From Octopus sinensis (taxonomy: Eukaryota): a stretch of 64,000 nt of DNA. The stretch's first letter is position 1, and each line of letters opens with the position of its first letter. Location: NCBI RefSeq assembly GCF_006345805.1, contig NC_043002.1:54684001-54748000 (forward strand), in the 5' to 3' direction. Below the pieces are notes generated by a model. The model made no database searches. It worked only from the letters and a program-made list of their open reading frames with translations, and was not told the DNA's origin. A program made the position numbers and the translations under genes. Below, piece after piece: positions 9,043 to 43,281 of this stretch.

Positions 9043-9230
9043 TATCTGATGCCATTTGTGGATTTGTTTCCCGTAGTTAATGAGCTGATCCGTTCGAGCA
9101 GACTAAAAGTGGTGGTTTACAGTGGACAACTGGACCTTATTGTGGCAACCTTAGGTGAGTAGAACAACTGGTTTCCTTATTTATCCTGTTTACACTGAAT
9201 ATATTGTAATGTTTAGCATAATCAGATCAC

Positions 9231-9520
9231 ATCATCATCATTGTTCGACCATGGTCGAGACAATGGAATTTACCATGCTATGCCAGACTTCACGCTCCAT
9301 CATGGCATTATGGAGGTCCTGTTGCTGGATGCCTGTATCCCTGGAGATTACATCAGGGTAGGAGAGTGTGCGCCCTCTGGTATTGCGAGTAGATGGCTTC
9401 CAGAGGAGAAGAGTAGAAATTACCTCTTTTTCAGCTCTACAACAATGTCCAGCAAACTGGACTCTCCTACCTTTCACAAGAGATGACACAGGTGGTAGTT
9501 TCCCATATATTTGCATTTTG
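9231..9520 (-). mobile_element. 3' fragment of an RTE-like LINE
   Basis: ORF 9238..9540 RRVQFAGHCCR...LLLWKP...SYPDVISRDTG, followed by a (GAT)n tail. Confidence 0.75.
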
Positions 9521-12500: not shown

Positions 12501-13773
12501 TATCGACAAAGATCTTAGTCATTTGTCATTGCCTCCGTGAAGCCCAATGCTCAAAAGGTGCTTTTTATGTGCCAGTTACACAACACTGGCCACATTGCCT
12601 CTGTGAGGCTTCCAAGGTTCTGCCTTGTCTGGCAGTCATTAAAAGAGATAATTAGAGAGAGCAAAAAAAAAGTAAGAAAAGATAAGAGTTTGGTGTGTAA
12701 ACCCCAAAGTTTGAAAATATAAAATGATGCAACAATATGTAAAGAGTGAACAATTTGTCTTCTATTTCAATCATTTGGCTGTGGCCCTGCTAGGGCACTG
12801 CTTTCAATTTTTAGTTGAATGATTCAACCCCAGTATTTTTGTTTTTTTGAAAGCCTGGTTCTTATTCTATTGGTTTCTTGCCAAACTGCAAAGTTATGAG
12901 GGATGTAAACATACCAATGCTGGTTGTGAAGTGGTCTTGGGGGACAAAAAACATACACAAACACACGCCAACCTTATTGCAGTTTCTATCTACCAAATCC
13001 ACTCACAAGGTTCAGTAGTAGAAGACGCTTGACCCAAGGTACCACATAAGTTGGACTAAATCTGATACCATGTGGTTTCAAAACAAAGCCACACTTGCGT
13101 CCCCCCCTACACACGAAGTAGCCAGTCCAGCAAATCCTTCCCCTTTCTCCAATTCATCATTAACAAATCCTAAACAAGAATTAATGTGTGTGTGTATCCT
13201 CACACACAAATAAAAGATATTTCCATCACAAACGACAAGTGTGAAAACCAACTAATAATCTCCATAAGACATGGAACCATTTGGTCAGACCAAGACTTTT
13301 TACTGTCCACTTCTGCCCCGTTTCCAATTGACTAAACCATTTAGAAGAACCTACTAAAAGAGCTACTTTTATCCAACAAAAAAAAACAAAAAAAAAACGC
13401 AAAACCTCTACAAATTAAACAATAATGACCAGTTTTTATTTTCTTCATCGATGGAACCAGGAGGTGTCCAATTTAATGTTTTCTCTACTTCAAGATTCTT
13501 TTGGATATTTCAGCAATCACTATTTGAAGAGAATCCAAAATTTCAAAGAGAACTAATCAACCAGATGCACAGAACAGAAAACTTTAGATGTGATTGAAAC
13601 ATCATTAAAAGTTTAGTTATTTAAAAAAATGTTTCCATACCAAAACACAAAACGAAATACACTATGGTTATTTCTACGAAAAGCAACAATGAATGTCATT
13701 GGTGAGGGGAGGGGGGTTTAACGTTTCACTTAGGTTACAAAGAAGAAGAAAAAACAGGGAAAAGCAGACTTAC

Positions 13774-13851
13774 CTGTATGTTTAAACATTTTAATAAACC
13801 GATATATTTGGTCTGGGTTACCATGACAATGGGTCAAACAAGAAAAACCAA
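13774..13851 (-). other. Candidate non-coding exon, 78 nt
   Basis: ttttcaatctcag acceptor; CAG|gtaagt donor. Confidence 0.5.
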
Positions 13852-14284
13852 CTGAGATTGAAAATTACAATACCTTTACTATGATATTCCAAAGACTGAC
13901 CATTTGTGATATTTGTTGCTGTTGTTGTAGTTGTTGTTCCAATTATTTAAAAAGAGTTTTTAAAAATGGTACTCACCCCCAACCATTTTCAAAGACTTTG
14001 GACTCTGTAGCAAAACATGATTATCATAAAGTTAGAAAGCATCCCATTAACTGGTCATCTTAAATACTTTCAGAATTAAAAGAGATTAAATCAGAATCTT
14101 ATATCTAAAATACCATTTGGAAAATTTTTTTTTTTTTTTTTTTTTTTTTAACAATTAATATTTACTGAAATTATAAATTTTTAAAATTCTGAAACAACTT
14201 GTCTAAATAATTATTTTAAAAATTATTTTCCAAGAGTAAAAGAAAATGGTTTGAGAGGAAGAGAAGGACAAAGAAAGTAGAGGG

Positions 14285-14356
14285 AGTCACCAACAGTCCA
14301 ACAGTGTGGAAAGTTGGGGGCAGGTTAAACCAGCCCAACAACATTTTGTTGTGACC
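14285..14356 (-). ncRNA. Four-way-junction RNA motif, copy A (function unknown)
   Basis: Minus strand ggtc|acaaca-aaa-tgttgt|t|gggc-tggtttaacct-gccc|ccaac-...-gttgg|t|gact; same architecture as the copies at 20221 and 20494. Confidence 0.7.
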
Positions 14357-14368
14357 TAACCTACTTGC

Positions 14369-14509
14369 CTGCTAAATATGATAGACTGTCCATCATTGAA
14401 GCACCAGGCCACTCTCTCCCAAAACCTAATCTGGAAGATAGGAACTACGGATAAGTAGCTGGAAACTCCAGATGTCAGCTTCTTGATTTCTTTTCAACCA
14501 ATTCACTCA
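14369..14509 (-). other. Candidate non-coding exon ending in a GC donor, 141 nt
   Basis: gctaa branch-like site, long pyrimidine tract and tttaaag acceptor; CAG|gcaagt donor. Confidence 0.55.
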
Positions 14510-17500
14510 CTTTAAACAAAGGGGAGTGGAAAATACAAAAGAAAAGAAAAAAAGAAAAAAAGCTTAGCATTTAGCTTTGCATTAGATAAATTTAAAACCT
14601 TAATTTTCACACTAGATGAAAAACAAAAATAATGAAAATTTGTAGTTAACTAAAAAGACATTGACAAGAACAAATGTAACACTAAAATTATGCAATCTGT
14701 ATCCAAATCCTCTAAATAACCTTCAAGACAATTCTCTTTTATAACTGTTGTTCAAAATAGGATTTCTAGCACAACATTTGAAATCACATTGAAATTCCTC
14801 TCAAACTATGAAGCTGTTTGTTGCATGCAAATAAAAATTGAAAATATATTTTATGCAAGCCTTTACTTATCCACTTTAATGTATCGCATTAACTAAATCA
14901 TCTACAATATGTCCAGCCATTACATCGGTAGCGATTCGACAGGTTCCAAAGTTTCATTGAGAGAAACTGATTTGGACTTAAAACAAAAGAAAATAACCTT
15001 TTCGACAACACCTCAAGTTTTGTGGGAGAGGTTAAATTGATTATGTCAACCCCAATGCTTAAACTGGTACTTATTTTATTGACCCCAATGGAACGAAACA
15101 CAAAGTCAACCTTGGTGAAATTTGAACTCAAAATCTGAAGACAGATGAAAAGTGTGTTAACAATTCAACCAAATCACCACCTTAAAAGATAACAACATCA
15201 AAGAAACAAGAAGAGCAACTATTAACCATTTTGGAAAAACTTCAGATAAAAGCAGAAAATCAACATCTGGAATTTTAGTTTTTGAAATGATTTCTAAGAC
15301 TGACAGAAGTCCAAAGAGAGGCAAGATATGAACCTTTTCAATCAAGGGAACAAAGATATTTTGCCTAATCAGCTCAGATATCACTGTTCATATGGAATTA
15401 TTATTATTATTATTATCAGGTCACTGCCTAGAATCGAACTCAGAATCTTGGGGTTAGTAGCCTATGCTCTTAACCACTACACCATGTACCCATGGGCAAT
15501 TATGAAGTGAATTTTAGGACTTATAAATCTAATATTTTCCTATCCTTCCTTAATACTGGTTCCCATATGCTATTCCTATCTACACTCTGTCTGCTTAGGA
15601 GGTTGTGTCCTAGCATATGTGCTGTTTCTTTTTAGTTTTTGTATTTTCCAGTGGTGTTCTCTGTCTATAATAATAATAATAATAATAATAATTCATATGG
15701 AATAGTTTAGGAAAAATAAATGTTAAAAAAAAATCCAAGAAAATTTGAAATCCCTTTTCTTGAGCAGCTTGATATAAATTTAGTTGAAACCTTACTGTTT
15801 GATGTCAAGAAATAGGGTCAGGTCATTCAATTATCTTCTGGTTTAAAAACAAAACAAACAGGATATGAAGAGAGAAGAGTTAGGCTGATCTTTGGAGATG
15901 CAGCTGTATGCAACTGGTTGATATAAAGATAGCATTTTGAATGGTTTGCAGAAGGAAAAGTAAAACAATGGAAACAAGACAGAAAATCTATTACGGGAAT
16001 CAATTGAAATCCAAACAAAAAAACTGGACAAGTGATGTAGTAATTTAATTTTGTATGTGTATACTAAAGTTGGAAAAATTAATGTAATTATGATATTCTG
16101 TTGGTCTAAAATGTACAGGTTCCCGTGCCAGTTGCATGTAAAAAGCAGTATCCAAACATGGCTGATGCCACTGCCCCCCTGATTTGCTCCCATGCTGGTG
16201 GCATGTAAAAAGCACTATGCAAACGTAATCGATGCCAGGCCCGCCTGACTGGCTCCTGTGCCGGCAACATGTAAAATGCACCCACTACACTTCTGGAGTG
16301 GTTGGCATTAGGAAGGCATCCAGCTACAGAAACACTGCCAGATTTAGATTGGAACCTGGTGCAGCCTCCTGGCTTGCCAGTCCTCAGTCAAACTGTCTAA
16401 CCCATGTCAGCATGGAAAACGGACATTAAACGATGATGAAGAATACTATGCAACTTTATAGCATACACACACACTTGTGCAGATGTGAAATAATTTGACA
16501 CTAAAATTATTTTTTCCTGATGTCGACTGCAAAATGGCTGTCATCCGCTGGATATTCAAATGTGAAATAAATATATTCATTTCATATCTCCAGACTTTCT
16601 TTACGTTCTGTATTAATCTCCACTGATCAGATTTATTGGATTTCAACTGGATAGGGGGCTCCACATTACACTCCTACATATTGGCTTGCTATGTGGCATG
16701 TAAGCCAGTCCATTAAAGGAGCTTTTATTTTTGAGATTACCACTGGATTAGAGAATTCCATATATTGTGCATTAAATACACACACAATGAGCTTCTTTCA
16801 GTTATCCACTCGGTTATAGTTGGCTAGAGGAAGACACCTGCCCAAGGTGCCAAACAGTGGGACTGAACCTGAGACCATTTGGTTGGAAAGCAAATTTCTT
16901 ATCAGACAGTCACACCTGTAGATATGACACGCAGAAGTATGCATTTCTTTTGTAATAAGCCAAAAGAGGTGGTGGGGGTTAGTGAGGTTGTTTTTTAGCT
17001 TGAAGGAAGGATTGGGCAGTAGAATGTTGAGTAAAAGAGGTGAGAGAAGGTATATATAGGTTGGACATGGGTGGTGGTGGTGGTGATCTATTTTAGAAGC
17101 TGTTGTAGTTAACATGCAATGAATCAGCAACTTGTTGGTGAGTCAACATTTTGCAATCGAATGAATGGCCTTCAGGGATATTGATTGCTGAGTTATGTAA
17201 TCACTCTTCTAGATGTAAGATTAATTAGGGTGGCTCTACTTGATGTTTGTAGAGAATTAGCAAGAGTCACAATTCAGCTATTATCTGACCCTAAAAAGGA
17301 AACTTATGAAGCTTTGGTAATAGTGTCAATAAGAGGTCATCGAGAGAGAGAGAGAAAGGGGGGGATTGGTCTGAAACGGTCTATTAACCCTTTAAGCATT
17401 CAGATTATTGTCAAATCTAATTCTTATTTATTCACATTGTTTTGAATTCATCATGGATTATCTCATAGCTTTTGAGATTTCAATGATATGATTGTTTATT

Positions 17501-18030
17501 TTTACAATGACATTATAGGGTAGGTATGAGAAGCTTGATCTGGTCAGTTTAAACATAAAACAGGGAGAATATTGGGGCCGGATGTGGGTTAAGAGACTTC
17601 GAGGGTTTCTGTGTCATTCAGGTGTACACAGGGAATGGCACAAGATAAAATTATGTCAATTTTTAAAGAAAATACTAGTATAGGTAAGACGACTAGATTG
17701 AGGTTGTGTTCTTGTGGCTAACCCTTGTTTTTCAAGTAAAGGATCTTTTCACAGGTGTTTGGAGGTGTGAAGGGAGCTGATGAATTATTGATAGAAATGA
17801 AAACACCACTACTTAGCAAAGAACTCTTTTATGGTGCAAATATAAGCCAGCTTCTCTCAGTTTTCATCGACCAAAATCCAGTGACAAGGCCAAAGGCTAT
17901 GGAAGATACTTGTCTGAAGTGCCACAGAGTGGGAGTGAACCTGAAACCACATGGTTGGGAAGCAAGACCTTTGAAGGCAGCTTACAAATCCTCTGCAGAG
18001 AATTAGTGCCAGTCTGGCAGGAGATGGCTG

Positions 18031-18031
<1 letters not shown>

Positions 18032-18091
<60 letters not shown>
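18032..18091. repeat. (GT)n microsatellite
   Basis: About 30 perfect GT units. Confidence 0.97.
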
Positions 18092-18093
<2 letters not shown>

Positions 18094-20220
18094 GTGTGTG
18101 GAGCTTTGTGAAGGAGTGAAAGGAGTTGGTTGAATACAAGGGTACATTTGAGTTGGTGGAGGAGGGTGAGGAGAAAGAGAGACCATGTCAGTGCTACAAC
18201 TGACACAACATATCTGATTGGGTGGGGAGGGGAAAGAATAAAAATGGGGATGGATATCAAAAAAAACAAGGATTTACACTTGAAGTGAGATTTAGCCTTC
18301 AGTGATTGGACTAATAATCCTTTCTACTAAGGGCACAAGGCATGAAATTTTGGGGGATGGCATGTGGCTTAGTGGTTAGGGCATTCAACTCACAATTGTA
18401 TGATCAAGAGTTCAATTCCCATCGAAGTGTTGTGTCTTTGAGCAAGATATTTTATTTCACGTTACCTCAGTCCACTCAGCTGGCAAAAAGGAGTCATACC
18501 TGTATTTCAAAAGGGGTCAGCCGTGTCACACATTGTGTCATGCTGAATCTCCCTCTGAACTACATTAAGGGTACATGTGTATGGAGTGCTCAGCCACATG
18601 CATGTTCCTTCAATTTGTAAAAAGCACCTACTACACTCTCGGAGTGGTTGGTGTAAGGAAGGGCATCCAGCTGTAGAAACCTTGCCAGATCAGATTGGAG
18701 CCTAGGGTGGCCTCCTGGCTTGTCAGTCCCCAGTCAAACCATCCAACCCATGCCAGCATGGAAAACAGATGTTAAACGATGATGATGAGGTTAGTTAATT
18801 ACACTGACCCAACTGGTTCTTATTTTACTAACCCTGAAGGCGTGAAAGGCAAAGTCGGCCTCGGTGAAATTTGAACTCAGAACATAAAAGCAGACAAAAT
18901 GCCACAAAGCATTTCGCCTGGTGTGCTAATGATTCTGCTAGCTTGCCACCCTAGTGATTCAACTGTAGGCTGTCACTGACATCTAAAGACTAGATGCAAA
19001 GTTGCAGCCTTTGCTCCATTGGGGATGTCTGCGTGTCCAGCTATGAAGGAAAAGAAAATCGAGTTCTTATTTGAGACTCAGTGCACACTCAAGTATTTTA
19101 CAAATAATAGACATCAATCAACCTGACTGAGCAATACTCAAACATCAAGGTCAAACTTTGACCAATCTGCTTCTAGTTCTACCTAATTCCTTCTTTTAGA
19201 ACCTTCCCAATGGGCCAATATGGATTATTGTGATTTCAGCTGAAAATATTTTCCTTCAGCCAATTTTTAAATCTGAAGACTGAACATTCAAGTTTTCTAT
19301 TTAGTTGCAAAAACAAGCAGTTTGTGTTGAGTCACCAGGCCTGGGTTGGGCCCAAGATCAAGTCACTGTCAGCAGTCAAGCTCCCTGCCCCTCCTAGCTC
19401 TCAGTCCTTACTGAAATGATGGAATTCAGGGACAATATTGTTAGACTGAATATTTCATTGGGTTCCAGTGTTGAGTAAAATAATCTTGTGGTTAAGCTTG
19501 GCCATCACTGTATCCAAAGAACTATTAAAATTCAACTCAACTGCTTAACGATTCAGAAACCAGTCATAGATGTAGAAACGCGAAAAAGAACACGCGCGCA
19601 CACACACACTATTAACACCAATGAAGATTACACAAGTTTCAAACTACATTGATCTGAGTAAATGCAAGAGTAACTTCACCATATCACTAACAGAAATGGC
19701 TTTGTCATGACAAAAACAAACAAATAACTATTTCAATGTTTTTTTCCTTCTTAACAGGACAGAAAAATCTTGAAGTTTTTAAATATAAACATCAAAACAT
19801 CAGTTATTTGTTGTTGCAATGTAAAGCTATTTATCAATGAAATCTTAAAATTCAGGTTTAAATGAATGGAGACTCACACTAGGCTTAGACTAAATCTCAT
19901 TCCACACACACACACTTGCGAATACTCGATTCACTCACTAATCTTATATATACATACATGGAGGTATGTAAAAGCCTTATAAGAACTCAAATGGTGAAGA
20001 AAGCAAACTAGTTTTAAAAATAGAAAGTGAAAATCAGATTCAAAACCAAAATCAAATTAAATCTGTTACTGACGAGAAAAAAAGAAAAGGAATCCATTAA
20101 TATTGTTCAAGGAATAGAAAGGAATGTAACAGATGAATGAGGTTTACGTAAATGCGAAATGTTGCAAAAGATGAAAGGAAAATGAACAAGTCAAAACACA
20201 AAAAACAAACAAACAAACGA

Positions 20221-20292
20221 AGTCACCAACTGACCTCGAGAAAGGCAGTTAGGGGCAGATAAAACCCAACAACAAGTCTACTTGCTGTGACC
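20221..20292 (-). ncRNA. Four-way-junction RNA motif, copy B
   Basis: Minus strand ggtc|acagcaag-taga-cttgttgt|t|gggt-tttatct-gccc|ctaactg-cctttctcgaggt-cagttgg|t|gact. Confidence 0.7.
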
Positions 20293-20493
20293 GAGTAACA
20301 AAAAAAGGAAAAAGAAAAAAAAGGAAAAAAGGTTTCCTAGGTAATTAAAGTGCAACTTAAGATATAACAGGCCATCTTTTATATAGTGATTAAAATAATT
20401 TACCAATAAGCATGCAGAATTTACAGGAACAGGAGAAAAAAATATGTGTATATATATATATATTTATAGAACTCAAGTTTAGAAAGAAAAATG

Positions 20494-20581
20494 CACATCG
20501 CCAACATGTTGTTGGGGGCCATTGTAGCTAGCCCAACAGTAAGCCGCAGAACCATACACAGAGCAGTCTTACTGTGACGTG
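20494..20581 (-). ncRNA. Four-way-junction RNA motif, copy C
   Basis: Minus strand cacgtc|acagtaag-...-cttactgt|t|gggcta-gctacaa-tggccc|ccaac-aacat-gttgg|c|gatgtg. Confidence 0.7.
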
Positions 20582-20594
20582 GTGACTGACTTGC

Positions 20595-20678
20595 CTGTAG
20601 AATTTCTTTGGAGTCCAAAGCCAGGTCACAAGCAAGCTCTCTCTCTCTCTCTCCCACCCAATGTACCCAAACTCAAAA
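20595..20678 (-). other. Candidate non-coding exon ending in a GC donor, 84 nt
   Basis: ttttctgcctgttcatggtttcag acceptor; CAG|gcaagt donor. Confidence 0.5.
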
Positions 20679-21297
20679 CTGAAACCATGAACAGGCAGAA
20701 AATATTTTTTTTTTTATTTCAGCCTTTTATAAAGAGAAGAAGAAGAAAAAAAAAATCAAGTTTCAGATAAATTTGAAAATGTTAAATCTGCAAATCAAGC
20801 ATATATAACATTAGGAAAGACTTCAAAAGACTGGAATATTACATATAAATGTGTTAGTTTTAGAATTTTTCTTCATTTTGAAAGAGAATGACTGAATACA
20901 TTTTCAACCTAATGGGTAGTAGCATGTGGGTATATCATATGATTGATCAGGCTATCGGACATTCCCATACACCACTAGTCACAATGTGTTTCAAAAAATG
21001 CCACTGTTGACTAGCAGAGGTCAACATTCCCCCACAATTGGGTGGGGGGGTTTCATCCATTCCAGGGCGACTCATTTCTACAGCTGAGTGGACAGAGCAA
21101 TGTGAAATGAAGGGTTTTGTGCAGGAGCACAACCGGCTACCTGGACAACAGATTGAACCCACAATCACCAGATCGTGAATGCAATGTCTCTAATGACAAG
21201 GCCATATGACTTCACATGTGTAAATATAAATGCATTAATTTAATAACTACAATTAATTTAATAGTTAATGAGTTCCTGTATCTCAATCTGTGCCACC

Positions 21298-21365
21298 CCA
21301 CACATAGCTCATTAGAGCATCAGACTTAATATGACAGTTACAGGTTCAAGTCCTCAGTAGGAGCA
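21298..21365 (+). pseudogene. Degenerate tRNA-Lys(UUU)-like sequence
   Basis: ATAGCTCA-TTAGAGCATCAGACTT-AAT...GGTTCAAGTCC matches eukaryotic tRNA-Lys, with deletions in the D and anticodon loops and a poor acceptor stem. Confidence 0.65.
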
Positions 21366-22368: not shown

Positions 22369-22391
22369 CAGATTCCAGCAGTGTTCAATGT
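22369..22391 (-). other. Candidate downstream microexon of ZNF207, 23 nt
   Basis: tttatttcatcag acceptor and CTG|gtaagt donor. Confidence 0.5.
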
Positions 22392-23108
22392 CTGATGAAA
22401 TAAACATTCCTCCCACTCCCATCCCCACCCTATTTAGGATCACGTTTCAACCTTACCCCCCATCGCCCACCCTACCCCCAACCAAATGAACTAATGGTGT
22501 CAGGAATAAAAATGTTCAGGGTTTAATGTTATAGACGTCTATTTCTTCGAACACCATTTACACAACATTCATTTTATCCAATAAATAGAATGGATTTTGT
22601 ATGCCATATCTTTGACAGTTGTGTTGCCATGGGTAGCAAATGCAGGTCTGAATTGCTTGAGATTATTATAATTATTATTATTATTATTATTATTATTACA
22701 CACATTTGACACAAGAGTTTTATTTCAGAGTTTCTTGAACATAATCAGAAGGTTAGCCACAAGTTCCTGAGGTCAGAAAACATTTTGTGAATGGAAAAAA
22801 AAAATTGCTAATCAAGTTTTCTAATCAATAAAATTAAACAGTTTGAAATCTTTGAATTGTATTACTTCTCCAGTAAAATAAGGAATTATTAACGTGATTC
22901 CGCTAATCCAAAGAAAACAACATTCTCCTCACTGCTAGGAGAAATCAGAAAGATGGAATAAGGTAGAACTTTGCAGATGAGTAACTCAATAATTTAAGAG
23001 CGGAGAGCAGCTATGGTTGTACTAGTGATGGAGATAGGAAAAAAAAGTGGCTGTAGACAAAGAAAAGGACATGAGGGAAGTCTGAAGAGACTAAACAATG
23101 ACGCTTAC

Positions 23109-23167
23109 CTTGAATTCAAGTGTTGGATGGTAAGTAGCTGGGCTAAAGTCTTCTTCTATCCCCTCAC
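23109..23167 (-). other. Candidate downstream exon of ZNF207 (3'UTR or alternative coding), 59 nt
   Basis: tttatgcag acceptor and AAG|gtaagc donor. Confidence 0.5.
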
Positions 23168-23709
23168 CTGCATAAACTGTACATAACAATACCCATCAGG
23201 TTAATTAGGCTTATGATCTACTGAAAACTCCTAATAGGCAGGTTTCTTAAAAAATAGACATTTTTGTAAGGAAAAGAGATAAAGTTTGTTTAATGGAGAG
23301 GTATTTAACAAAAAAAAAAAAAAAGGAAAAATATACATTTGCTTGCTTTGTTTTGTTTTTTTCTCTCAAGGAGTGAACAGTCAGAAAATGATTGTGAAAT
23401 AAGAACGAGGGCAAGGGAGCAGGAGGAATAACAGATTGGCAGCTGAAGACTGGAGCTAACCAGCAAGAACAGCAGTAGCAGCAGCAAGCTCAAGCTAAAG
23501 AATAATAATAATAATAGTATTGACGAGCTTACCAATTACTGCTGTAATTACCAATCAGACTGTCACTGCTAGAGAATTTAGTGATTCCCATTATGACACT
23601 CACCAATGAGGTGGACACTCTAAGTTGGTGGCAATAAAAAGGGAGAAGTAGAAGAGAAGAAGAAGAAAAAAAGAAGAAGAAAAGAAAATAAACAGCTCTA
23701 ACATAACAT

Positions 23710-23849
23710 TTAGAACCTCCCTGCTTGTTGCGGTGATTGTGTTGTCGTTGCTGGTTGATTCATTATGACACCACGTGGATATGGGTTGTAAGGAGCACGG
23801 ATGCCCATCGCTGGTGGCACAGTGGCTGGCATTCGAGTGAGAATTGGGC
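23710..23849 (-). CDS. ZNF207: ZNF207 last coding exon
   Basis: [27 protein letters not shown]...QQAGRF then TAA; resembles the GGRY/F C-terminus of the family. Confidence 0.88.
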
Positions 23850-26800
23850 CTGAAATTGTCAAAAGGTTTTACAATAAGTGACAAAGAAAGAAAAAAGAAA
23901 AAAACTAAAATTAAAATGCTAAAGGAAATCATTTTACACAAAGTCAGAATTAAAGTAAATGCAATGTTAGTTTTCTATTTCTGGGATCCATTTGCCATTT
24001 AAAATGCATCCAGTTCACATTGTAAAGTGGTTGGCATTTGGAAGGGCATCCAGCTGTAAAAAAGCCTTGCCAAAACTGATCTCACATGTGCTTGTGTCCT
24101 GTAAAAACCACTAAGTCCACTCTGCTGAGTGGTTGATGTTAGGAAGGTCATCCAGCTGTAAAAACCCTGCCAATACAGTCACAAAAGTCTAGTGCAAGCT
24201 TCTGCCTGATTGGCTCCTGTCAAACCATCCCACCCATGCCAGCATGGAAGGCAGGTGCTGAACTATGATGATGGTGATTTGTAACATTCTTTAACCTTTT
24301 AGCATTTAAACTGACCGTACCCAGACCAAATATTCTACCTATTTTATGTTCAAACTGGCCAGATCCAGCCTCTCACACCTACCCAACAATGTCATTCTAA
24401 AAACAATCACATTGTCAAAATCTCAAGGCTATGAGATGATGCAAAATTAATTCGAAACAATGTGAATAAATAAGGATTACATTTGACAGAGTAATCAGAA
24501 TGCTGAAGGGTCAGTCACTTGCAAACAGTAAAATACTGAACACATCAAATATAACTTACTCCACTTCTACAATACAGCCACCATTTGTAGTGCTCCCGAC
24601 TGGCTCCCATGCTGGTGGCACATAAAAAGCACCATCTGAACATGGCTGATGCCAGTACCCACTGACTAGCCCCATGCTGGTGGCATGTAAAAAGCACTAT
24701 CTGAATGTGATTGATGCCAGGCATGCCTGACTGGCTCCTGTACTGGTGGCATGTAAGAAGCACCCACTACACTCTTGGAGTGGTTTGCATTAGAAGAGCA
24801 TCCAGCAGTAGAAACCTTGCCAGATCAGACTGGAGCCTGGTGCAGCCGCTGGCTCCCCAAACCTCAAACTGTCCAACCCATGCCAGCATGGAAAACAGAT
24901 GTTAAATGATGACAATGAAACTACCAAGCAAGCTACTCGTGCCGGCTATTATTCCACTCAAAGCTGAAACTTTTTGTAATACCAGTGAACCTGAAAAATT
25001 TAGATATTTTTTTTGATTTGTAACACATTATAGCAATACATGTGGCCTAATGGTTAGGGTGTTGCACTCAGGATTGCCAGACCATGGGTTCAATTTCCAG
25101 ATTGGGTGGTGCATTGCGTACTTAAGCAAAATACTTTACGTTGCTTTGGGCCACTCAGCTATAAATGGGTCACTCTGTGACGGACTAGCCTTCTGATTAG
25201 GGGGAACGGATGTTGGCCTGTTCCTGTAGCCAACAGGGTTAGGGTTCTTTCAAAGCTAAAAACGATGCAAAGCACATTGTGATCAATGATGTATAACAGG
25301 TTTAAAATTACAACACCTTTTACAGAACTCAAAGAAGACAGAAGAAATGGTATGTTCAATCACAAGTGAACTTCCACTGAGATCTGTCACCAAAAACAGT
25401 CCAGCCATGACTATTTCATCTATCCAGGAGTATTTAAGACAACATTATCTCAAGTATACATTCCTTTATTTCAAGTTGTAGTAGTTCAGAGAGATGTGGC
25501 TATCTTTTCTAGCAAAAGAAAAGCAACCATGTAAAAGCTTATTATTTACATTATTTAAATTATTTACATTTGATGGATATTTGTCCTCATCTTGTTTGTT
25601 ATATTTTTAGCTAAAAGTAAGCTGTTGTAACTTGCATATACTGACCAGGAGAAAGGTTTTGATAGTTCCATGATTTATTATGTGATGAATGTTAAGGAAA
25701 CCCAGACAAATTTCTTGTACAAACTATATACACAGGTATCGGCAGCAAGGTCAGTGTTAGCTATGTGAACAGTGACAAGTTTAGAGTGTAGGTGGGGGTC
25801 TATTTGGGCCTGGTCCTCAGCCCTTTTTGTCCATTGTAGTCTTCCAAGATATAACAGGAGTTTAAGACTGTTAGTCCATGGCATGGGAACTATGATTTAG
25901 TTCTGAGAATTAAATCTAATGTAGATTTACAGAAGAAATTTCAGATACGTAAAGAAGACTAGAATAGAGAAACCTCAAACATAGCAAATAGTAAATTTTA
26001 TTAAATACGAAAAAAGACAGGGTTCTGGTGCCATCAGAAACTGGTACTGGGTTTGATATGCAAGAAAAGGAGGAGACAGAAATTCTGCATGGATGCATAG
26101 GAGGAATAAAGATTAATAACAGATGGGACATAAATAAATTAACCGTAGGTGCAAGTGTTCTAAGTGTTTGTGTAAGAATGTATTATCACCTCTGATAGCA
26201 ATAAAGAATTGCTCCCTCAGAATTAGGGGCAAATCATTTAATGTTTATGTATAATGCTGCATGGTAGCAACACATGGGCCTTGGATGCAGAGCATTTGCA
26301 AAGATTAGAAATGAAGTGAGCACACACTGATGGATGTCTAATGTTAGCGTGTGGATGATGGAGTACAAATGAGGGTAAAGAGAAACCAGATACAAAAGGA
26401 ATCAAATTTAGTGTGCAAGAACTGAACTGGTAGAGGCATGTGATGTGCAAGAAAGTAGTGAATGCTCCAAGTGGAGGGACCCTGTGAAAGATGGAGATTG
26501 AGGACAACAAGAAACAAAGCATTAAAGGCAGTTCACAAGAAGTTACACTTCACAAAGACAAAGGATTCTGAGGGTTAGCCTCTCACACCTTAACAGTAAG
26601 CATTACCCTTCTATATTATTAGCTACCATTTCAGGTCACTCATGGTCAACACACACACACATCAACCAATTTCTAGAACCACCACTTGCTTCTCTTACTA
26701 ACTTATAGCTGCCCTTAGCCATCTCTTCTCTCTCTTCCCCATTGCTTAACTGTTTCCTTCCTTACTTCACCTAGCATTGATTATTTCCTCCCGTCCTGTC

Positions 26801-29800
26801 ACTCCAATTACTGTTTCTTCCAACATACTCTCTCAATTCTTCTCTTCTCTCCTGCCCTGATTCATCTTCTGCCTATTCTGTTGCTTACACTGCCTTCTTG
26901 AACAAAAAGAGACAACATGCAATGGTCAGCTCTCTTTTGTTTAGCACTAATGCCACAATCAAATGCTTCCAATCCATTTTGTAAAGTGGTTGGGGTTTAG
27001 GAAAAGTACTGAGCTGTAGAAACTATGTAGAAAAAAAAAACACAAGTGAGAAATGCCCCCCCCCTACCGCACCTCCCCAGTCGTCTTGGAGGGCAGAAAC
27101 TGAATAAGAACTGATTTGGACTGTGATGACCCATCAAACCCATGCCAGAAGAGAGAATGGATGTAAAACCAATGGTTTTATAAACAAGCATTTATTGTGG
27201 AATATAAGAAATGCAGTTGTACATATTTATGCATTCATTCATATTTGCTGCTCTGTTTGGTATGAGGAACACAAGAATATAAGAAGAGGGTTTAAAAGAG
27301 AAAATATTTACTGACCAGACAGCATTCCAGATGTCATCATACCTTGTACAGGCCGAGGCGACTGAGTGGCTTTTTTATACTTAGGGAGACTGGCACGTCT
27401 TTCTTCCTATAAAAGCAATAATAATACATCACATGTAGACATTAAAACAAACATGGTAGTTCTTTGATATCTAATAGATTGTTACAGACATTCTTCAATG
27501 ACAGAAAATTACAGCAAGACGACTTTAGTTTTTTTGGGGAAATTAAAAACAAAGAAAAATGTAGTGCATCATTCACTTACTGATCAAGTGATTCTTCAAT
27601 GGAGAAAGATGGCCACCTCAACCATTTGCTGAGCTCTAGGACATTAGTAGGAATTTTCAAATCAACATTATCTAGAATCTGTAACATTTATTTTTAAATC
27701 TAGGAGGACAGCATCAGGCAGGTAAATATATCTACATTTATGATGTTAACAGACTTTGAAATTCAAATTTGCCACTTTAAAAATACAAGAACGGAAAACG
27801 GTCAATGGCATAAAATCACAAGGAATTAGCTGAAGAAAGTTGAAATACTTCTAACTAAAGATCAAAAAATCTTATCACTGCTGGGCCACAGTGCCCAATA
27901 CTGACAGCATCTAAGTACACAAACATCAAACTCCAGATTTAAAAGCAAGCAGCAAATAAAACTGACAATCAGCCAGGTTCCCCCACCCCCAAAGGCATAA
28001 ATGACATGAGTGATGGGCTGGGTTTTTTTTTTACCATGAATAAAAAATCACATCACACATTTCACTCCCCAGAAAACAAGATGGTGCCAGTTAAAGATTT
28101 AGTTGGCATTATCTTGGTTGCATTGCAGAGCCATGTCTGCAGGCAATATACTCAAGCCTCACAAGGCAGTGAGCTGGCAGAAATGTTAGCATGCTGGGCA
28201 AAATGCTTAGCAGTATTTCGTCCATCTTTACATTCTGAGTTCAAATTCCGCTGAGGTTGACTTTGCCTTTCATCCTTTCGGGGTCAATAAATTAAGTACC
28301 AGTTGCGTACTGAGGTCGATCTAATTGACTGACCCCCACCCCAGAAACTTCGGGCCCTTGTGCCTAGAATAAAAAAGAATATACTCAAAAGTCTCACTAG
28401 CTGAGTTGAATTATTTCCTTAGAAATAGCACAAAATTAATCAACTGATTGTTGCTAAGTAAATGGGAACACTTAATATACAAGTTTCAACACTTCCAGTG
28501 AATAAAGCTTAGTGAGATAAGCTGACCTTGAACTTCCCCTCATAAAGAACACTGCTTATCAGCTTGAAGCCTCAAGTTAGGGAGATAATATTCTGTTGTG
28601 AAAGTTGCATTGTTTTACAATAGTCTTAATCAGTTTATCATCAACATCCGTTTTCCATGCTGGCATGGGTTGGACGGTTCAACTGGGATCTGGGAAGCCA
28701 GGAGGCTGTACCAGGCTCCAGTCTAATCTGGTAGTGTTTCTACAGCTAGATGCCCTTCCTAATGCCAAACCACTCTGAGAGTGTAGTGGGTGCTTTTTAC
28801 GTGCCAGAGGAGACTGGTAACAACCACAGTTGGTGTTTTTTACATGCCACCAGCACGGAACGGCACAGGGATCACAAATACAATTTCCACTTGATTTTGA
28901 TGAACTTGACTCAATAGGTCTCCTCAAGCACAGCATGTCGCCCTACAATCTAAGGTACTTTTGAGTGGGCTGGGGCTGGTTATGCGACACTGGTGTAGGT
29001 TTCAGCTGTGAACTCATTTTAGTGAAACAAACGTTCCAAATAGTAACAAAAACTAGTTCAAAGACTTGATTCAGTCAAGAACTTTACCATCACAAAACTG
29101 TACACCAATAATACTTTGAGAAGAAGAGCAAAATCAATTTTACATTTTCACTTTTAATGTTTTTTTTCTTAAATCAAGTTTTGTTTTTAAATCCTATAAC
29201 AGTTATTTGAAAGGGGGAAAGGAAATTTAAATAATTCAAAATATAGCAAAAATAAAAGACAGGAATTTAATAAGGGAAAGGATATTTTTATACACACAAC
29301 ATGCGTACGTAGGCATACATTTTATATGTGTGTGTGTGAGATGAGGCAAGTGGAAGAGAAGGAATCTATGGAGGAGGATGACTTGAGACCTAAAAAGAAA
29401 TGTAGAGACAAGACTCCAAGATGGTCGCTATTAAGAAGTGAAAAGATGGAAGAGAGCCAGCCATCCGATGCCACAAACCCACATATAAACTCACCAGTGA
29501 TATGTCTTCATCCGGATGCATCAACTTTGACGTTAACCCTGACGCCGATTCTGGTTTACGGATAATAGGTGCTCCTGATATTGTGGCACTGGGGGAGATT
29601 GATGTTGTGACAGCAGCTGCTGAAGGAAATGTTGGTTTTATCTGTGCCATAGCTTGGCTTATAGCTGTGGTGGGTTTGAAATCTGGTCCAACTGGTCGCG
29701 ATGTGCTAGTCTGTGTCTGGTTAAAAACAAAATTGAAAACATTGATCAATATTTAGCATCAAATACAACAGACAGACAAGTTACAACAGATACTGTTGAG

Positions 29801-32800
29801 GAGACAGGTTCAATCTATAGTAGCATAAAAAAAAGAAAAAAGATACTACAGTGGTGCTTTATAACTATATCATTATGGTCCTTAACTTCTCCATTGCTAC
29901 TGATTGACATCCCTTCTTGTCTTAATCTGCTGATCCTAGCACCCTCACATTTGATCCCCCAACTATTTTCCATTGTCTTTCTTTATATCTGTTTTATATT
30001 CTGGTACCAGATAAAAAAACAAACGTTTCATATTGTTTATGTATCAATAAAAAGAGGATTTGTACTGACCGCTTCTCTATGGATCTCAATGGATCAGCAT
30101 TATTGATCTTGTTGTTTACATATAAACAAACTCAGGAAATATAGAATAACGTTCCCTATCCAATCAATAACAGTTCAATAACTTGATTTGGACATTTCCC
30201 TTTACAAAATACTTATACTCATTTGGTACAGTGCAACCCTAAGGGAAGCCCAGAGAATGAATGTTCCAGCAGAAGAAGGAATGGCTTTAGGGATTAGTGC
30301 AGGATCTAATACAACATGGATGACAAGACGGGCTTCTGGAGAAGGTGGAACAAAACTAATTTTGAGGGAACAGGGGACATTGTAGCTACAATGGAACTGG
30401 CTGTTCATCACAGATAAACAGAGAACATGGATGTTTAATAATAATGATGAAATTTCTGAAGCCAGTTCCCTATTTGTTTCTGTGTACACAATGAAACCAC
30501 TGATGACAACTTGAAAACTGCCAAATTAATTCTTTTAATGCTTTTTGATGTTCAACCGTTATGGTTTTCTGTAATGAATCTTTAACTGACTGGCCTTCTT
30601 TAGCTGTGACCATTCTTGTCTTCATCCATTTTTTAAGATGAGATATTTAGGTTCCTTTTTCTAATAGGTCAAGTGGTTAATATAGAGGTTTTCCCAAGGT
30701 CAACCTGATGTTAAGTAACAAAATTATGCAGTTTCTCTCTCACCAACACTTCACATCATTTCGCCATTTCTCTACATTTTTATTAGTTACTCTCCACTTC
30801 CCCCATTTATGTACTGCCACCTATCATCTTCTACTCTCTGACTCACATCCTATTGTCCTTTACCTACCACCCTTAAACCGAGATTCATTACTGATCACCC
30901 CCACCCCTTCTAACCATTTGTTACTCTTCTTTCACAATCACCCAAACCTATCCACACAGCAATCCTTGATTCCCTGTCCCTTTTCTATTACTATTCACCT
31001 TCTTGTATCCTGACAGCACACCAACATGCTTTCTCCCTTTCCTGCTGGGGCAGCTACATATCTCCACTACAGCAAGACCTATGGGCTTGTCCCTCCATCA
31101 TACTTTAAGCTCTCATCCCCTGCTACAAAGCCACTTCCCTCATTCAACGGGTTTTGTTTTGCAAGTTACTCAGTACCCTCACTAGCGCTAGTGCGATGGA
31201 AAAATAAATTAAATAAAGCTGCCAAGGCATTCTGTGAACTGGTTGGTGTTAGGAAAGGCATTCAGCCATAGAAATCATGGCAAAGTTGACAGTGAAGCTT
31301 GAAGGATCCTGTGGAACCTATCAACCATTGTTGGCATAGAAAACATGCTAAATGATGATGATAAATTCAATCAGAAACCTGCCAGTGTATCAACAAGACT
31401 AGTCCAGAGCACAGAGCAAAGGATGACTTAAGAAGCAGACCCTAGGTATAGACAAGGTGACCATACTACAAACTTCTCCATCCATTCTCTCTGCCCACCA
31501 TTTCAGGAATCTCCCTCCATAGGGTCTTATCAGAAACAACTACTATTTCACTTTCCAGCTGGGTTTCCAAACTTAACCAACTGAAACTAGAGATACTCAG
31601 CCATCTCATTCTTCATCTCCACCCTTACGTTTTCTACTGGTTGGCTTAGCTTAATCCATTTTGTGGTTCTTTCCTGAGACATTCTAATCACATTACAACA
31701 AAAGCTATGATCTCTCAATGCTGAGAAGTAGCAGGTCAACATGGAGAGTCCATTTGACATATGAAAAACCAATGATGATGATGATGATACTGAGAGTGAC
31801 AAGTTAAAAATGCTCCAAGTCCTGAGGTATCAATATTTTTCAATAGTTGATAGGAAGCCCTAGCTTACCTGTCCAGCTGCTGCAGCGGGGAAAAGAGGTT
31901 TTGCTGGTGCATTCTGTGTTGAAGTTATAGACTGTGAGGAAATTGGAGGTCTTGACACTTGAGGCATTATTCCACGTGGAGGAACAGCCATTGTGGGAAT
32001 ACCAGGACCATTGTTTGGATGCATTCTGCAAAGAAGGAATACAACAAAATTGAATAAAGAATTCTTTAAAAATATTTTATAAAAATGATTTTATGAGAGA
32101 CAAATTTCAAAACTGACACATTAAACATCTTTATTTATTTTTTTCCTTCTTTAAAACCTAATCACTTACCTTAAAAGTGTATTTACCATTCTTTATAATT
32201 CCTTTATTGGTTTATATATTTAGTTGGAATGGACATTGGAAATATTGAGACATCACAAGATGTTTTACAATTGTTATAAGTAATTATTGGTATGAATAAA
32301 GCAGAGATGAAATTAAGACTTACCCTATTTGTGATATTGGTCCCATAGGGCCTGCAAAAAAAGAGAAAAATAATAATAAAAACTGTTGTTTAACCTCAAG
32401 TCAATCCTAATCAACCAGTTGTAGGATTTGTTTTTTAGCTAAGTTTTTGTTATTATCATCCATATGTGAATTAGTCAATCAATCTAGGATTCCCTCATTT
32501 CTTTCACTATCTACTTGCTAAGGCCACACCTAATTTTCATTTCATTTCAGTTTCAGCCAGACTCCCATTCCTGTTGCAAAAATGCTTAGGAGATAAATTT
32601 ATCAATTAAAAAAGGTACATGTATATTAATTTAGTATTTTAATAAGAATAATAATTATTAAATACTACAGCTTTCCTTCTGTGCCCGAACTAGCTACACT
32701 ATGCATAAGCTTAGCCTTACACAAGGGCTGCTCAATGTCCGTTTTTGCATATGCATTACACCCACTCACCCTTCCCCACCATTTTAACTCGTAACATTTT

Positions 32801-33185
32801 CACCTGGTGATTCATACGTGTGCTGTTTATGTGAATACATATATTTTGAGCATACCCTTATTCCCCCTCTTTATAGTCCTCATACAAGAGCCCTGATGTG
32901 TGTCATACAGTTGAATATTTACACACATAATACTTAAGCTGCTCTATGTAACCACCCTATTCTCATATCCACTTGTTGGCTCTTGCTTAGGATGTTGGAT
33001 GAGGTCTATGCAAGCTGGTAAGCATTTTCGCAGATCTTCGTTTCAGGTGACGACAAAATTCTCACAACTAACTTACCGCAACCACTCCCAAGTACTTAAA
33101 CCCAGGGACGCTATCATCAATGTTGGCACAATGAAGGGAAGGATGCCTGAGATCCTAGAAGACACACACACACAGACAGAACGGG

Positions 33186-33219
<34 letters not shown>

Positions 33220-36200
33220 ATGTTTGTGCCTCCCAGCCATCGCTTGACAACCAATCTTGGTGTGTTTACATCCACATAACTTAGTGGTTGGCAAAAGAGG
33301 CCGATACAATAAGTACTCGGCTTACAAAGAGTAAGTCTTGGAGTAGATTTGTTTCACTGAAGATGGTGCTCCAGCATGGCTGCAGTGAAATGACTGAAAG
33401 AATATATATATATATATATATATATATTGTTTCAGTCATTAGATTGTGGCCAAGTTGAAGCATCACCTTGAAGAATTCTCAGCAGAATGAAACATGTACA
33501 TTTGAATGGAAGAAACTTACCAACAGGAGGCATTGGCGCCATTGGACCGATAGGTCCTATTGGCCCTAATGGCCCAGCTGGTCCCGGTCCTGGAGGAAGA
33601 GGAGGCATACTAGGAGCCCCTGGAGGAACAAAAGGTGGCATTGCAGCAACTGGTACCTGACCTCCATTGAAGTAAGTGTTGTTAGCGGGACAACTGTTGC
33701 TGTCTTCATCACTGTCTGCTTGCGGCTGCCGATTATCTCCTAGCATACGGAAGAAAAGAAAATCATTTAATAAAAAAAAAGAATTTTAACACCCAAGGAC
33801 ACTAATTTTATCACCCAAGGACACTAATGTCTTAGGATTTAAAATGGACAATGTGAAAGTATTTAGATCTAAATTTTAATTTTCCAGCATAACTTTAAGA
33901 ATTAGAAATACAAAAGTATGTTCCAAACACTCTCAAAAGCGAGCATCTATATTACTAAATCTCTAAAAATTCCTTATTTCCAAAATTTATTGGGGCCTCA
34001 AGGAAGTGTGTATATCATTAGAAACAGAAAAAGGAAAGAATGACTGGAAAGAAATGAAGAATATCTTTGAAGAATAATCGGAGAGTCTCTTACAGTAAGA
34101 GTCTAAGAACTATACTCAAACAGGAAGAGACAAACTGAGCAAAATATAGGATAAAGGGGTCTCTCTCAATTCAGTATGAAAAGGCCCTTTCCAAAGATCT
34201 GAATGCCAGACCAGTGAGCAGACAGTCAACCAGATTTCATCTTTGCATCAAATCATATCAGCACTAAGAACCCCAACAATATTCCAGCCAAAGATAAGCG
34301 GTGGGAGCAGCCAGGATTGTTCTCATGCTGGACATAATGCTTTGTGGCATTTCATCTGCCTTTATGTTCTGAGTTCAAATTCCACCAAGATTGACTTTGC
34401 CTTTCATCCTTTTGGGGGGAGGGGGGTCGGTAAAATAAATACCAGTTGAATACTGGGTTGATGCAATCAGTTTACCTCCTAAGCCCCGAAATTGCTGGCA
34501 TTGTGCCAAAGTTTGAAATCAATGTTACCGTTAAAGGTAGGCAACCACACACACATTAGTGAAAAGGTTGGGAACCACTGCACTATAATATGTGAAATTG
34601 GGGTTCTCAAAACTGCTTTTACTGCCTCCTAGATTGTCAGGGCAGTGGAGCTGACAGAATTATTCTCGTGTTGGACGAAATGCATTTTTTCTGACTCTTT
34701 ACATAATAAAATACAAATGTTAAGGGGATGGATGAAGGGAATGGTGGATAAGAGATGGGGGGAATGTCCAATGAGACATGGGGTGAGGGTGGGGTGTAAA
34801 ACAGCAGAAAACAATGATGCATAAGAGAGAGGCATTGTGCTCGAGAAGAGTGAGAGGTGAATGGTGGTAGAGAAGAGCTAAAATATTTGGTGGCTGAGGA
34901 ACAACGCTATTCTATAGATTCCATTTGTATTGACAGGACTCAATTGTAAAACATTCTGACAAACAAAACATCACTTTATATTAGCAATATTAGAAATACT
35001 GGAAAGATATCAATTATCTAAAAGTGGATTATCTCATAACTAGTATTGAATACATTAAGAATAATGAGAAAAGAAAAAAACTGTGGTGAGGTACCTTTTC
35101 CAAGTTTGTGTTTTTCATGTTCTTTCATATCTTCTTCCGGAATTCCTTCCATTCCATAGATTTCTATTTCTATGTTATTCCGACCAGGTAATGCATTGGG
35201 AACTTTATCAACTTTTTCCTTATGAACCTAGAAAAAAGGTTTTTTGTAAATATTTAGCATTTTATTTAAGGACAAGCTGATGACAAAAAAGTTGAAATGA
35301 AGAAACTAGTATCAGAGAAATTTCAAAAGAATATCTCATGGAACTCTCACTTTCCATTCTGTTTCCATCTACCAAATACACTCACAAGGCTTTGGTTGGC
35401 CCAAGTGCCATGCAGTGGGATTGAGCCTGGAATCACATGGTTGGGAAGCAAGCTTCTTACCACACAGCCATGTCTGCACCTATGTATTTCTTCATTCTAA
35501 CTTAAATTAATCTTTACAAAACTTTATATAATTTTAAAAAGAAATTCAAAAATGGACATGGTAAATTTCTCTTCTGCTATAGAATTTAAATTCTATATAA
35601 ATTATTATTTACTAGACATTTCTAATGATTAGAAATAAAGCTGCAGATTAGTTTGATAAAGATCATCCCTTTCTAAGCTATTGACTAAATCAAACTCGGC
35701 TACAAGACACAAGTGCTGCACAACTGTGCCAACCAATAATCAACAGGAGATGTTTCTATGTCACTGTGACACGACTCAAGAAATTATTGAACATGAAATC
35801 AATAATCAATATTGAAACAGTCTTGTATGGTGTTTGTGTGTTAGCAAACAACGGGGAGGGTAGATATGATGTTAAAAGCAGAGCATGCTGCTGCAAATCA
35901 AGCTTATCAAGTCTACCATACTCTATACGGATTTAAGGGCACTGGTAAAATCCAACAGATATAATAATCAATAGGTCTGGCCCCTGGAGGACATTCAATA
36001 AGACTAAATCTCAAATGGCAATTCAAATAGCAAATAATTGAAAAGGAGAAATTAATATTAATTGAAAGCAATCACTTACTTGCATACAATGTATCGATAA
36101 GCCAGGCCCTGTGTAAAGTTTCTTGTGACATATATGGCATTTGAAGTGCTTTGCTTTTTGATGTTGGATGAGAATCTTTTCATCATCAAATTCTCTATTG

Positions 36201-36842
36201 CAGTACCTGAGTTAGATTTAAGGAAACAACTTGGCAAAATAATATTGGTTTCAAATTTTGACACAAGGCCAGCATTGGTGGAGAGGGAACAAGGTTGATT
36301 ACATCAAACCCCCGCCCCCATGTCCAACTGGTACTTATTTTATCAACCCCAAAACAATGAAAGGCAAAGTCAAACTCAGACAGACAAAATGCCACTAAGC
36401 ATTTTGCCTGGTACGCTAATGGCTCTGTCAGCTCACCACTCAGCAAAATATAAAAAAAAAAAAACAAGCATATATGAATTGTAAAGAAATAATAAAGTAG
36501 CAGTTCTACTGGCCAAGTGAAGTCAAAGGTTTTGGCTAAGGTCGCCAAAAAAAGCCCTTTCATTCAGTGCGAGCAATTGAGAATTCTATCTGCTGTTTCT
36601 ATTGCAACATCTGATGGCGTTTACCACCATAGCAAATGAAACAAGTGTACCATGTTGTGCTAAATGTATGTGTGTGATGATCATCATTTAATATCCATTT
36701 TCCATGCTGGGATAGGTTGGATGATTTGACAGGGACCTCACTGTTCTGGCAGGGTTTCTACAGCTGGATGGCCTTCCCAACACTAACCACTTTACAGAGG
36801 AGACTGAGTGCTTTGTACATGGCACCAACACTATGTATAAAA

Positions 36843-36877
<35 letters not shown>

Positions 36878-42800: not shown

Positions 42801-43211
42801 AAGGGAGGGATTTTACACAATTAGAAGTTCAGATATTATCTCGTGGTTTGTATTATTACATTAATACTGACGACATAGGTTGAGGGAAGGGACTAGAATG
42901 GTTATAATATATTTTATGAAAGAAACGGTGAAGCACGTTATGTTATCTAAAAATAATTGTTCAAGTTTGCGTATATATATATATATATATATATAAAGGG
43001 TGACCCCCCTTCGGTCATGAATAACCATAGGATTGCACCTGGAAAGTTACTCCGAAGCACAAATCCGTGCAAGGTTGTTTATGGAAGACCAGCAGTCGCC
43101 CATACATACAAGCCTCCCCTGTATATATGTATATACACACACACAACTGGAGGAGAACGAACTTTACACTGTACTCTATGTTCTTAACAGAATATACCAT
43201 AACTCTCTCTC

Positions 43212-43281
<70 letters not shown>

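Follow-up and report, generated by a model that had tools for sequence, protein, structure and literature searches.

A GC-type 5' splice site paired with a four-way RNA junction behind the ZNF207 stop codon of octopus and other animals

Structured RNA elements through which a gene regulates its own splicing include the MAT2A hairpins, P5SM in the TFIIIA gene of plants and the PIE of U1A. The SF3B3 poison-exon stem-loop and the ENOX1 pseudo-donor have been described as conserved RNA elements (PMC13100119). The outcome of the USSE in the SNRNP48 and RNPC3 genes is nonsense-mediated decay (NMD) or nuclear retention (PMC8329584). For ZNF207 itself, Pedersen et al. predicted in 2006 a pair of clover folds at the 3' end of the human gene, separated by less than 3.5 kb; one lies in the 3' UTR, the other in an intron of an alternative variant. 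These folds had near-identical central stems and free loops, they ranked first and fourth among the long clover predictions of that human screen, and a new family was proposed for them (PMC1440920).

The 3' region of octopus ZNF207

The window, which is the whole 64 kb stretch of octopus DNA analysed here, carries ZNF207/BuGZ on its minus strand, with an exon-by-exon identity of 80-100% to the Octopus bimaculoides protein (tblastn). The features around its 3' end are the following.

23710..44592, minus strand: ZNF207/BuGZ coding region, 9 exons, located by tblastn with Octopus bimaculoides protein P0009
23849, minus strand: start of the last ZNF207 coding exon; the splice junction into 23849 is a loose end in run X11
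23712-23710, minus strand: ZNF207 stop codon, TAA
22121..23709, minus strand: proximal 3' UTR of the main mRNA, from contig depth and poly(A) hexamers
22724, 22527, 22249 and 22121, minus strand: poly(A)-signal hexamers, read in the sequence
23598..23606, minus strand: candidate GT donor in the 3' UTR, intron G at 23603, 106 nt after the stop codon, recognized from sequence alone
23103..23111, minus strand: second candidate GT donor, AAG/GTAAGC (the slash marks the splice site), intron G at 23108, about 600 nt after the stop codon, recognized in the same way
13768..13776, minus strand: perfect GT donor CAG/GTAAGT, intron G at 13773, candidate end of the next non-coding exon

Contigs from four public runs cover 22706-23850 at a depth of 111-479, and further 3' the long contigs among those listed have a depth of 5-35, contig depth being a rough measure in both cases. 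The runs were taken as RNA by guess; X11 shows splicing into the final coding exon. Because contig depth drops in the 3' direction and the hexamers lie at 22724-22121, the 3' end of the main ZNF207 mRNA is most likely about 1.5 kb upstream of the first GC site. The GC donors, folds and candidate exons described below are thus all 3' of the stop codon and past the 3' end of the main mRNA. The donor at 23603 is a candidate, judged by its motif, that would open a splicing path toward the 3' region. Both it and the donor at 23108 are bridged unspliced by the main contigs, and the donor at 13773 is bridged unspliced by contigs of runs X2, X9 and X11.

The word CAG/GCAAGT was found exactly two times in the 64 kb window, against an expectation of 0.2-0.3 per strand under a Markov model. 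Both occurrences are on the minus strand, about 3 and about 9 kb past the ZNF207 stop codon, and their intron G residues at 20594 and 14368 are where the first-pass annotation had placed them. The two donors, the folds behind them and the exons that they could close are listed here.

20589..20597, minus strand: GC donor C, CAG/GCAAGT, read in the sequence
20497..20578, minus strand: four-way junction copy C, by folding; covariance-model score of 50 bits, the copy being in the training set
20222..20291, minus strand: four-way junction copy B, by folding; no donor within 30 nt
20595..20678, minus strand: candidate non-coding exon C, 84 nt, acceptor assigned by sequence
14363..14371, minus strand: GC donor A, CAG/GCAAGT, read in the sequence
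14286..14355, minus strand: four-way junction copy A, by folding; a pyrimidine tract follows the fold, with candidate acceptors at 14188 and 14004
14369..14509, minus strand: candidate non-coding exon A, 141 nt, assigned by sequence; alternatively 62 nt, from an acceptor at 14430

The closing helix begins 16 nt (copy C) and 13 nt (copy A) after the intron G. An earlier figure of about 12 nt is slightly short. Copy B, which had been put about 200 nt deeper than copy C, starts 206 nt past the end of that copy. A long pyrimidine tract leads into copy B, and an AG at 20286-20285 sits within one of its arms; this AG could possibly be a hidden acceptor, which is a guess from the letters. The acceptors proposed earlier at 20678 and 14509 are present, but a simple acceptor rule finds a match about every 116 nt in the donor-fold loci, so that a plausible acceptor says little by itself, and exon A may also start at 14430.

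Copies A, C and B each fold as a four-way junction, with z scores of -2.4, -1.4 and -2.9, respectively. The fold of copy C is not significant when taken alone, since 18 of 200 shuffles were equally good. Searching Rfam 15 gave no covariance-model match at the copies. The core pattern has four matches in the 2.7 Gb octopus genome, namely A, B, C and a duplicate of A in a segmental duplicate elsewhere in the genome, and the control had 0. This genome search found no other octopus gene with a donor-fold unit; five extra matches to the donor pattern lacked the fold. In the segmental duplicate the unit differs at 3-4% of positions and the flanking 500-nt bins at 0-8%, a comparison that is uninformative on extra constraint.

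Recurrence and structure of the donor-fold unit

Metagenome contigs were scanned with a pattern made from the 3' part of the fold, which excluded the donor and the 5' strands of helices 1 and 2. The scan returned 90 stretches, and the matches listed among them represent 79 loci. A covariance model, from which the donor was again excluded, was trained on 31 copies and had 89 matches at E <=0.05 in 89 sources. A gap in the scores from 39.5 to 32.3 bits separates 64 strong matches from the other 25, which we call weak. The strong matches come from 41 metagenome loci, the window and the octopus duplicate, and once redundancy is removed they amount to 51 distinct copies, grouped in 10 sequence clusters, nine of them outside octopus.

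AG/GCRRGT is present within 30 nt upstream of the fold in 42 of the 51 distinct strong copies, compared with a background of 0.0012 GC donors per 30 nt. The donor is exactly AG/GCAAGT in 41 of these; the sole exception is the octopus duplicate. With octopus left out, AG/GCAAGT lies 7-24 nt upstream in 39 of 47 distinct copies, and when the 19 related sequences of cluster 1 are omitted as well, a donor is still present in 20 of 28. At least one donor-linked copy occurs in 9 of the 10 clusters and in 8 of the 9 outside octopus. A loss of the GC donors from loci that keep the fold had been named in the first-pass annotation as one observation that would refute its interpretation, and donors are found in these eight non-octopus clusters. 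Its judgement that the octopus pairing of donor and structure is not due to chance agrees with the recurrence of the unit in other animals. A GT donor was found upstream of the fold in none of the 64 strong matches, and a GC donor in none of the 25 weak ones. On the sense strand of these loci the donor word occurs 93 times, on the antisense strand 12 times. The first letter of the fold is 7-24 nt past the G, at intron positions +8 to +25, and the fold never overlaps positions +1 to +7; it is therefore never on the letters that pair with U1. Since 9 of the 51 strong copies have no donor, the fold must also act, or persist, donor-free.

ZNF207 coding sequence was identified upstream of the fold in eight loci from three clusters, for which the best named matches were bivalve, other mollusc and annelid proteins. 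The remaining six of the nine outside clusters are short contigs without ZNF207 coding sequence, so that their link to ZNF207 is an assumption. Locus L085 has up to five units in tandem, 115-130 nt apart. The order in the tandem arrays of L085, L023 and L067 is donor, fold, pyrimidine-rich stretch, AG, 20-60 nt and then the next donor. The AG after a tandem unit is mostly 75-130 nt from the donor, as in short introns, a likeness that is weak because such acceptors are common. L067 is without any coding introns, yet has retained three donor-fold units. In L081 a copy of the fold lies 115 nt past the stop codon in a transcript-like contig. The word AG/CTAAGT, which resembles a U1 site and is uncuttable, follows the stop codon in L022, L064, L067 and L081.

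The consensus structure consists of two stacks, a short closing helix on arm 2 and arm 3 on arm 4, with a single unpaired U following the first and a single unpaired pyrimidine following the second. Among the 31 copies, 99.8% of 551 cells are paired, 5 of the 18 pairs show changes on both sides, and none of 500 shuffles reached the pairing score. The search pattern itself required two of the helices, and ten of the 18 core pairs are invariant, so pairs outside the pattern provide the better test. In the next three pairs of arm 2 beyond the searched core, 62 of 66 cells are paired versus 41.8 after shuffling of the partners, a value reached by none of 5000 shuffles. The outer pair of the closing helix is changed from G-C to A-U in 6 of the 31 copies. 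The donor and the four-way junction are a real, deeply conserved unit, with pairing beyond chance.

The arms are free in length (48-82 nt among the aligned copies) and the junction alone is kept; from copy to copy the central stems are nearly the same and the loops diverge. The invariance of the paired letters around the junction, together with the free loop lengths, leads us to infer that a protein reads the junction. The closing helix, at 3-5 bp, is marginal in folding models, its mean probability being 0.52 alone and 0.36 in context. A two-state switch by branch migration was rejected, since none of the 31 copies has an alternative helix above 0.2. Mimicry of U1 snRNA is also rejected for now, as the model had no match in four octopus U1 loci; the likeness of the fold to stem-loop 3 of U1 snRNA, examined post hoc, was reached by 7.8% of shuffles.

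A conditional splice donor and its rivals

Several properties of the unit suggest that the GC site is an exon end. Cluster 1 has, invariantly in all 19 of its sequences, a CTAA of branch-point type and the acceptor AAATAG 60-90 nt upstream of the donor, and the piece between acceptor and donor takes indels of any length. An invariant branch point and acceptor combined with such indels are the signature of a non-coding exon in this cluster. Twelve of the 19 sequences have an additional short exon-like piece that also ends in CAG/GCAAGT. Around the GC the match to U1 is near-perfect, AG/GCAAGT being present in 41 of the 42 donor-linked copies, and this is the context in which GC-AG donors that are used usually stand. 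An exon junction more than 50-55 nt behind a stop codon triggers NMD. The first GC donors of L022, L064 and L067 are 531-831 nt past the stop codon, and the predicted octopus junctions are at least 106 nt after it.

We propose that the unit is a conditional splice donor that routes ZNF207 mRNA into decay by negative feedback, a proposal that we favor over its rivals and for which we consider the chances evenly balanced, with donor use, ligand, direction of control and decay all part of what is proposed. ZNF207, riding on the U1 snRNP, would be the likely protein to dock on the four-way junction. The docked protein would license the weak GC site, and splicing behind the stop codon would then send the ZNF207 mRNA to NMD. 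In octopus, the spliced path would start at the GT donor 106 or 600 nt past the stop codon, remove the proximal poly(A) signals and then run via exons C and A. A weak GC donor with a landing pad beside the U1 footprint, in a place that triggers decay, would supply what negative feedback by ZNF207 needs. The first-pass annotation had suggested a weak GC donor switched by a factor that binds the adjacent structure. What stands of this suggestion is that donor and fold form one selected unit, that the GC is invariant in other animals, that ZNF207 is the host gene and that in one cluster the donor closes a conserved non-coding exon; the switching is conditional on the proposal above.

Published work on ZNF207 bears on this proposal. 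The human zinc fingers bind U1-70K and U1 snRNA and set the poison exons of LUC7L and LUC7L2 (PMC12952242). ZNF207 mostly favors inclusion, with 639 exons promoted versus 76 repressed (10.1101/2025.04.25.648738, preprint). In human ZNF207, a junction that joins the last coding exon to the 3' region reaches 0.91 RPM in EJC-bound RNA versus 0.17 and 0.15 in RNA-seq, according to a row in the supplement of PMC8091538. The new junctions given in that source are of the GT-AG type only and so cannot show GC use. One of the ZNF207 exons goes up 3-4-fold on cycloheximide in U2-2 knock-out cells (10.1101/2025.03.12.642709). Against the proposal, RNA binding by ZNF207 was concluded to be largely without sequence specificity, and over-expression alone to change little (PMC12952242; 10.1101/2025.04.25.648738). 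Also counting against feedback are the assembly of the unspliced form (L067 and run X2), the 9 of 51 donor-free copies, the marginal closing helix, the missing resemblance to U1 snRNA, the assumed gene link of six clusters and the many invariant core pairs. In the four contig runs on 9500-24500, which were swamped by repeats, no GC-donor junction was seen among the 15 of 91 joints and 24 of 895 loose ends listed. Depth in octopus run X2 is equal on either side of donor A. Such steady-state retention would follow from destruction of the spliced form as well as from rare cutting at the site, and it therefore does not discriminate between the two leading models.

The second of these models, and the main rival, is that U1 docks on the GC site and seldom cuts there, as in the USSE; we regard this as rather unlikely. 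The docked U1 and the fold would then define the upstream acceptor or keep the intron in, so that a long isoform stays in the nucleus or the proximal poly(A) site is avoided. Docking would agree with the fact that GC never drifts to GT in the 42 donor-linked copies, with the close tandem spacing in L085, with the uncuttable U1-like word behind the stop codon of four loci and with the unspliced form being what assembles in L067 and the octopus runs, and RNPC3 provides a precedent with U11 (PMC8329584). There is, however, no evident reason for a site used only for docking to keep exactly GC, and the AG/GCAAGT context is typical of GC-AG donors that are cut. The pyrimidine-rich stretch and AG after most tandem units also look like the end of a short intron, subject to the weakness noted above. 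It is a little harder to believe that the donor is used but that the fold is a brake that keeps it shut, or that the fold binds a U1 partner (U1-70K, LUC7L or RBM25) so that ZNF207 is cross-regulated. In copy A, bases that follow the fold are able to pair with the donor (probability 0.85, reached by 0 of 40 shuffles), ZNF207 itself has little sequence preference (10.1101/2025.04.25.648738), and cross-regulation among U1 helpers has been reported (PMC12952242). As a general means of hiding the donor, extension of the closing helix was rejected: it is true for copy A, but only 8 of 27 copies fell in the top tenth of shuffles, with a mean of 0.42 versus 0.32. The fold also stays clear of intron positions +1 to +7, and it is in no other octopus gene.

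Two further explanations carry far less weight. The folds could be small RNAs released from intron 5' ends, as the first-pass annotation had offered as an alternative, and the compact stable fold (z down to -2.9) and the several copies per locus would be in keeping with this. The Rfam search lent it no support, and free arm lengths around a kept junction, the location of the L081 copy in what looks like a transcript, and a tie to a GC donor 7-24 nt away, which small RNAs would leave unexplained, make it a poor fit and very improbable. Chance, or a repeat copied together with its flank, we consider already refuted. Copies within a locus may share descent by duplication, and one copy is in a segmental duplicate, but the unit recurs in eight of the nine outside clusters with unrelated spacers and loops, the whole octopus genome has only four matches, and the stems have compensatory changes.

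Returning to the conditional donor, we would more tentatively extend the proposal, in a form that we think probably goes too far. The module may predate the split of molluscs, annelids and vertebrates, the zinc fingers of ZNF207 may read the junction directly, and the stacking of up to five or six units in a gene may set the steepness of the feedback. The clover family that headed the 2006 ranking and is unexplained would thereby have its function.

Relation to known systems

If the conditional-donor proposal is true, ZNF207, a mitotic factor and proposed progeria target, would have a dosage circuit and possibly a natural RNA ligand, and the unit would be a clear-cut example of selection preserving a GC donor for a regulatory role across animal phyla. 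Like the proposed unit, MAT2A, P5SM, PIE, SF3B3 and ENOX1 have a conserved element in the host pre-mRNA that sets unproductive processing of the host message; their folds and positions are different. U1 snRNA mimicry would have been the analogue of P5SM and PIE and is unsupported for the ZNF207 unit. The USSE of SNRNP48 and RNPC3 shares with the octopus unit a non-coding donor-like site behind a conserved acceptor, a constrained distance, and a host gene for an snRNP helper (PMC8329584). It differs in being a tandem U12-type donor that is uncut and, as described there, has no attached fold, whereas the octopus site is a U2-type GC donor with a four-way junction. The U12-type tandem donor consensus is absent from the octopus site, which reads as U2-type AG/GCAAGT.

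The closest known parallel is the clover family of Pedersen et al. (PMC1440920). In both cases the fold is at the ZNF207 3' end, is a clover with compensatory changes, and occurs in several copies with like stems and divergent loops. The 2006 prediction came from an eight-way vertebrate alignment, and the section of that paper on the folds gives no function and mentions no GC donor. In our search of the literature on ZNF207/ZFP207/BuGZ, which did not extend to subscription journals or the EvoFam paper, only PMC1440920 treats the folds, and neither invertebrate copies nor a GC donor nor a function was found. ZNF207 rows are absent from the supplements of PMC11310781 and PMC7242645. The tie to the GC donor and the invertebrate range therefore appear to be new; the mechanism is inferred. 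By comparison of descriptions rather than letter by letter, the octopus fold probably belongs to the 2006 family, and the GC donor that precedes the invertebrate copies provides these clover folds with a testable job, that of governing a weak 5' splice site past the stop codon.

A segmental duplicate, a second ZNF207 and repeat-like features

The 3' flank of octopus ZNF207 has a segmental duplicate in the octopus genome (G000), and a second ZNF207 occurs in the same assembly. Two repeat-like features lie in the window.

G000, contig C6, 3928293-3943567 (loci L012, L013 and L001): segmental duplicate of the ZNF207 3' flank, matching window 558-14662
G000, contig C6303, 534366 (loci L011 and L016-L019): second ZNF207
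Window 18363-18424, plus strand: probable SINE head, scoring weakly (30 bits) as tRNA-like
Window 55929-57743, minus strand: broken LINE-type reverse transcriptase reading

The C6 duplicate is 84-95% identical to the matching part of the window. Directly upstream of exon A, the candidate non-coding exon, a LINE-like insertion truncates it. Copy A of the predicted four-way junction (the fold) is retained with its stems intact, and the donor there is CAG|GCAGGT. In contigs from two public sequencing runs (X1 and X9) that carry the duplicate's alleles, 347 nt (10899-11247) are skipped; the skipped segment has GT..AG ends on the plus strand, and a spliced transcript therefore runs antisense to ZNF207 at this position.

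The C6303 gene has 67% identity in the exon searched, lacks the first intron, and has an intron of about 24 nt. No fold was found in the surrounding 40 kb. The gene probably belongs to another organism that was co-assembled, perhaps a kidney parasite whose introns are tiny.

Donor-like words and donor-less folds

The word AG|CTAAGT, which resembles a donor but has C at +1, is conserved 9-68 nt 3' of the stop codon in four outside loci (L022, L064, L067 and L081) and is absent behind the octopus ZNF207 stop codon. A further GC donor without a fold, CCAG|GCAAGT, was found in 12 of the 19 related metagenome sequences of cluster 1. It lies 435-1026 nt 5' of the donor that is linked to the fold, closing a piece of about 15-20 nt that starts after an AG.

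Fold copies without a donor are often final in their array (the last copies of L081, L023 and L085), and several have an A-U closing pair instead of G-C. In copy B (at window 20286-20330, minus strand, which is not the extent of the copy itself) and in L081, a pyrimidine tract leads into an AG within arm 2, which may be an acceptor masked by the fold.

Introns within ZNF207

In three outside loci, the intron interrupting the GLEBS motif contains a short exon-like sequence that carries an in-frame stop and is possibly a second poison exon; octopus has a weaker candidate.

L022, oriented 1213-1257: exon-like piece
L064, 1599-1626: exon-like piece
L088, about 430-490: exon-like piece
Window 27581-27628, minus strand: weaker octopus candidate
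Window 44551, minus strand: start of intron 1, GTATCCTTT

Intron 1 of octopus ZNF207 begins with a U12-type donor; ZNF207 is among the genes listed for nested U12/U2 introns (PMC8329584).
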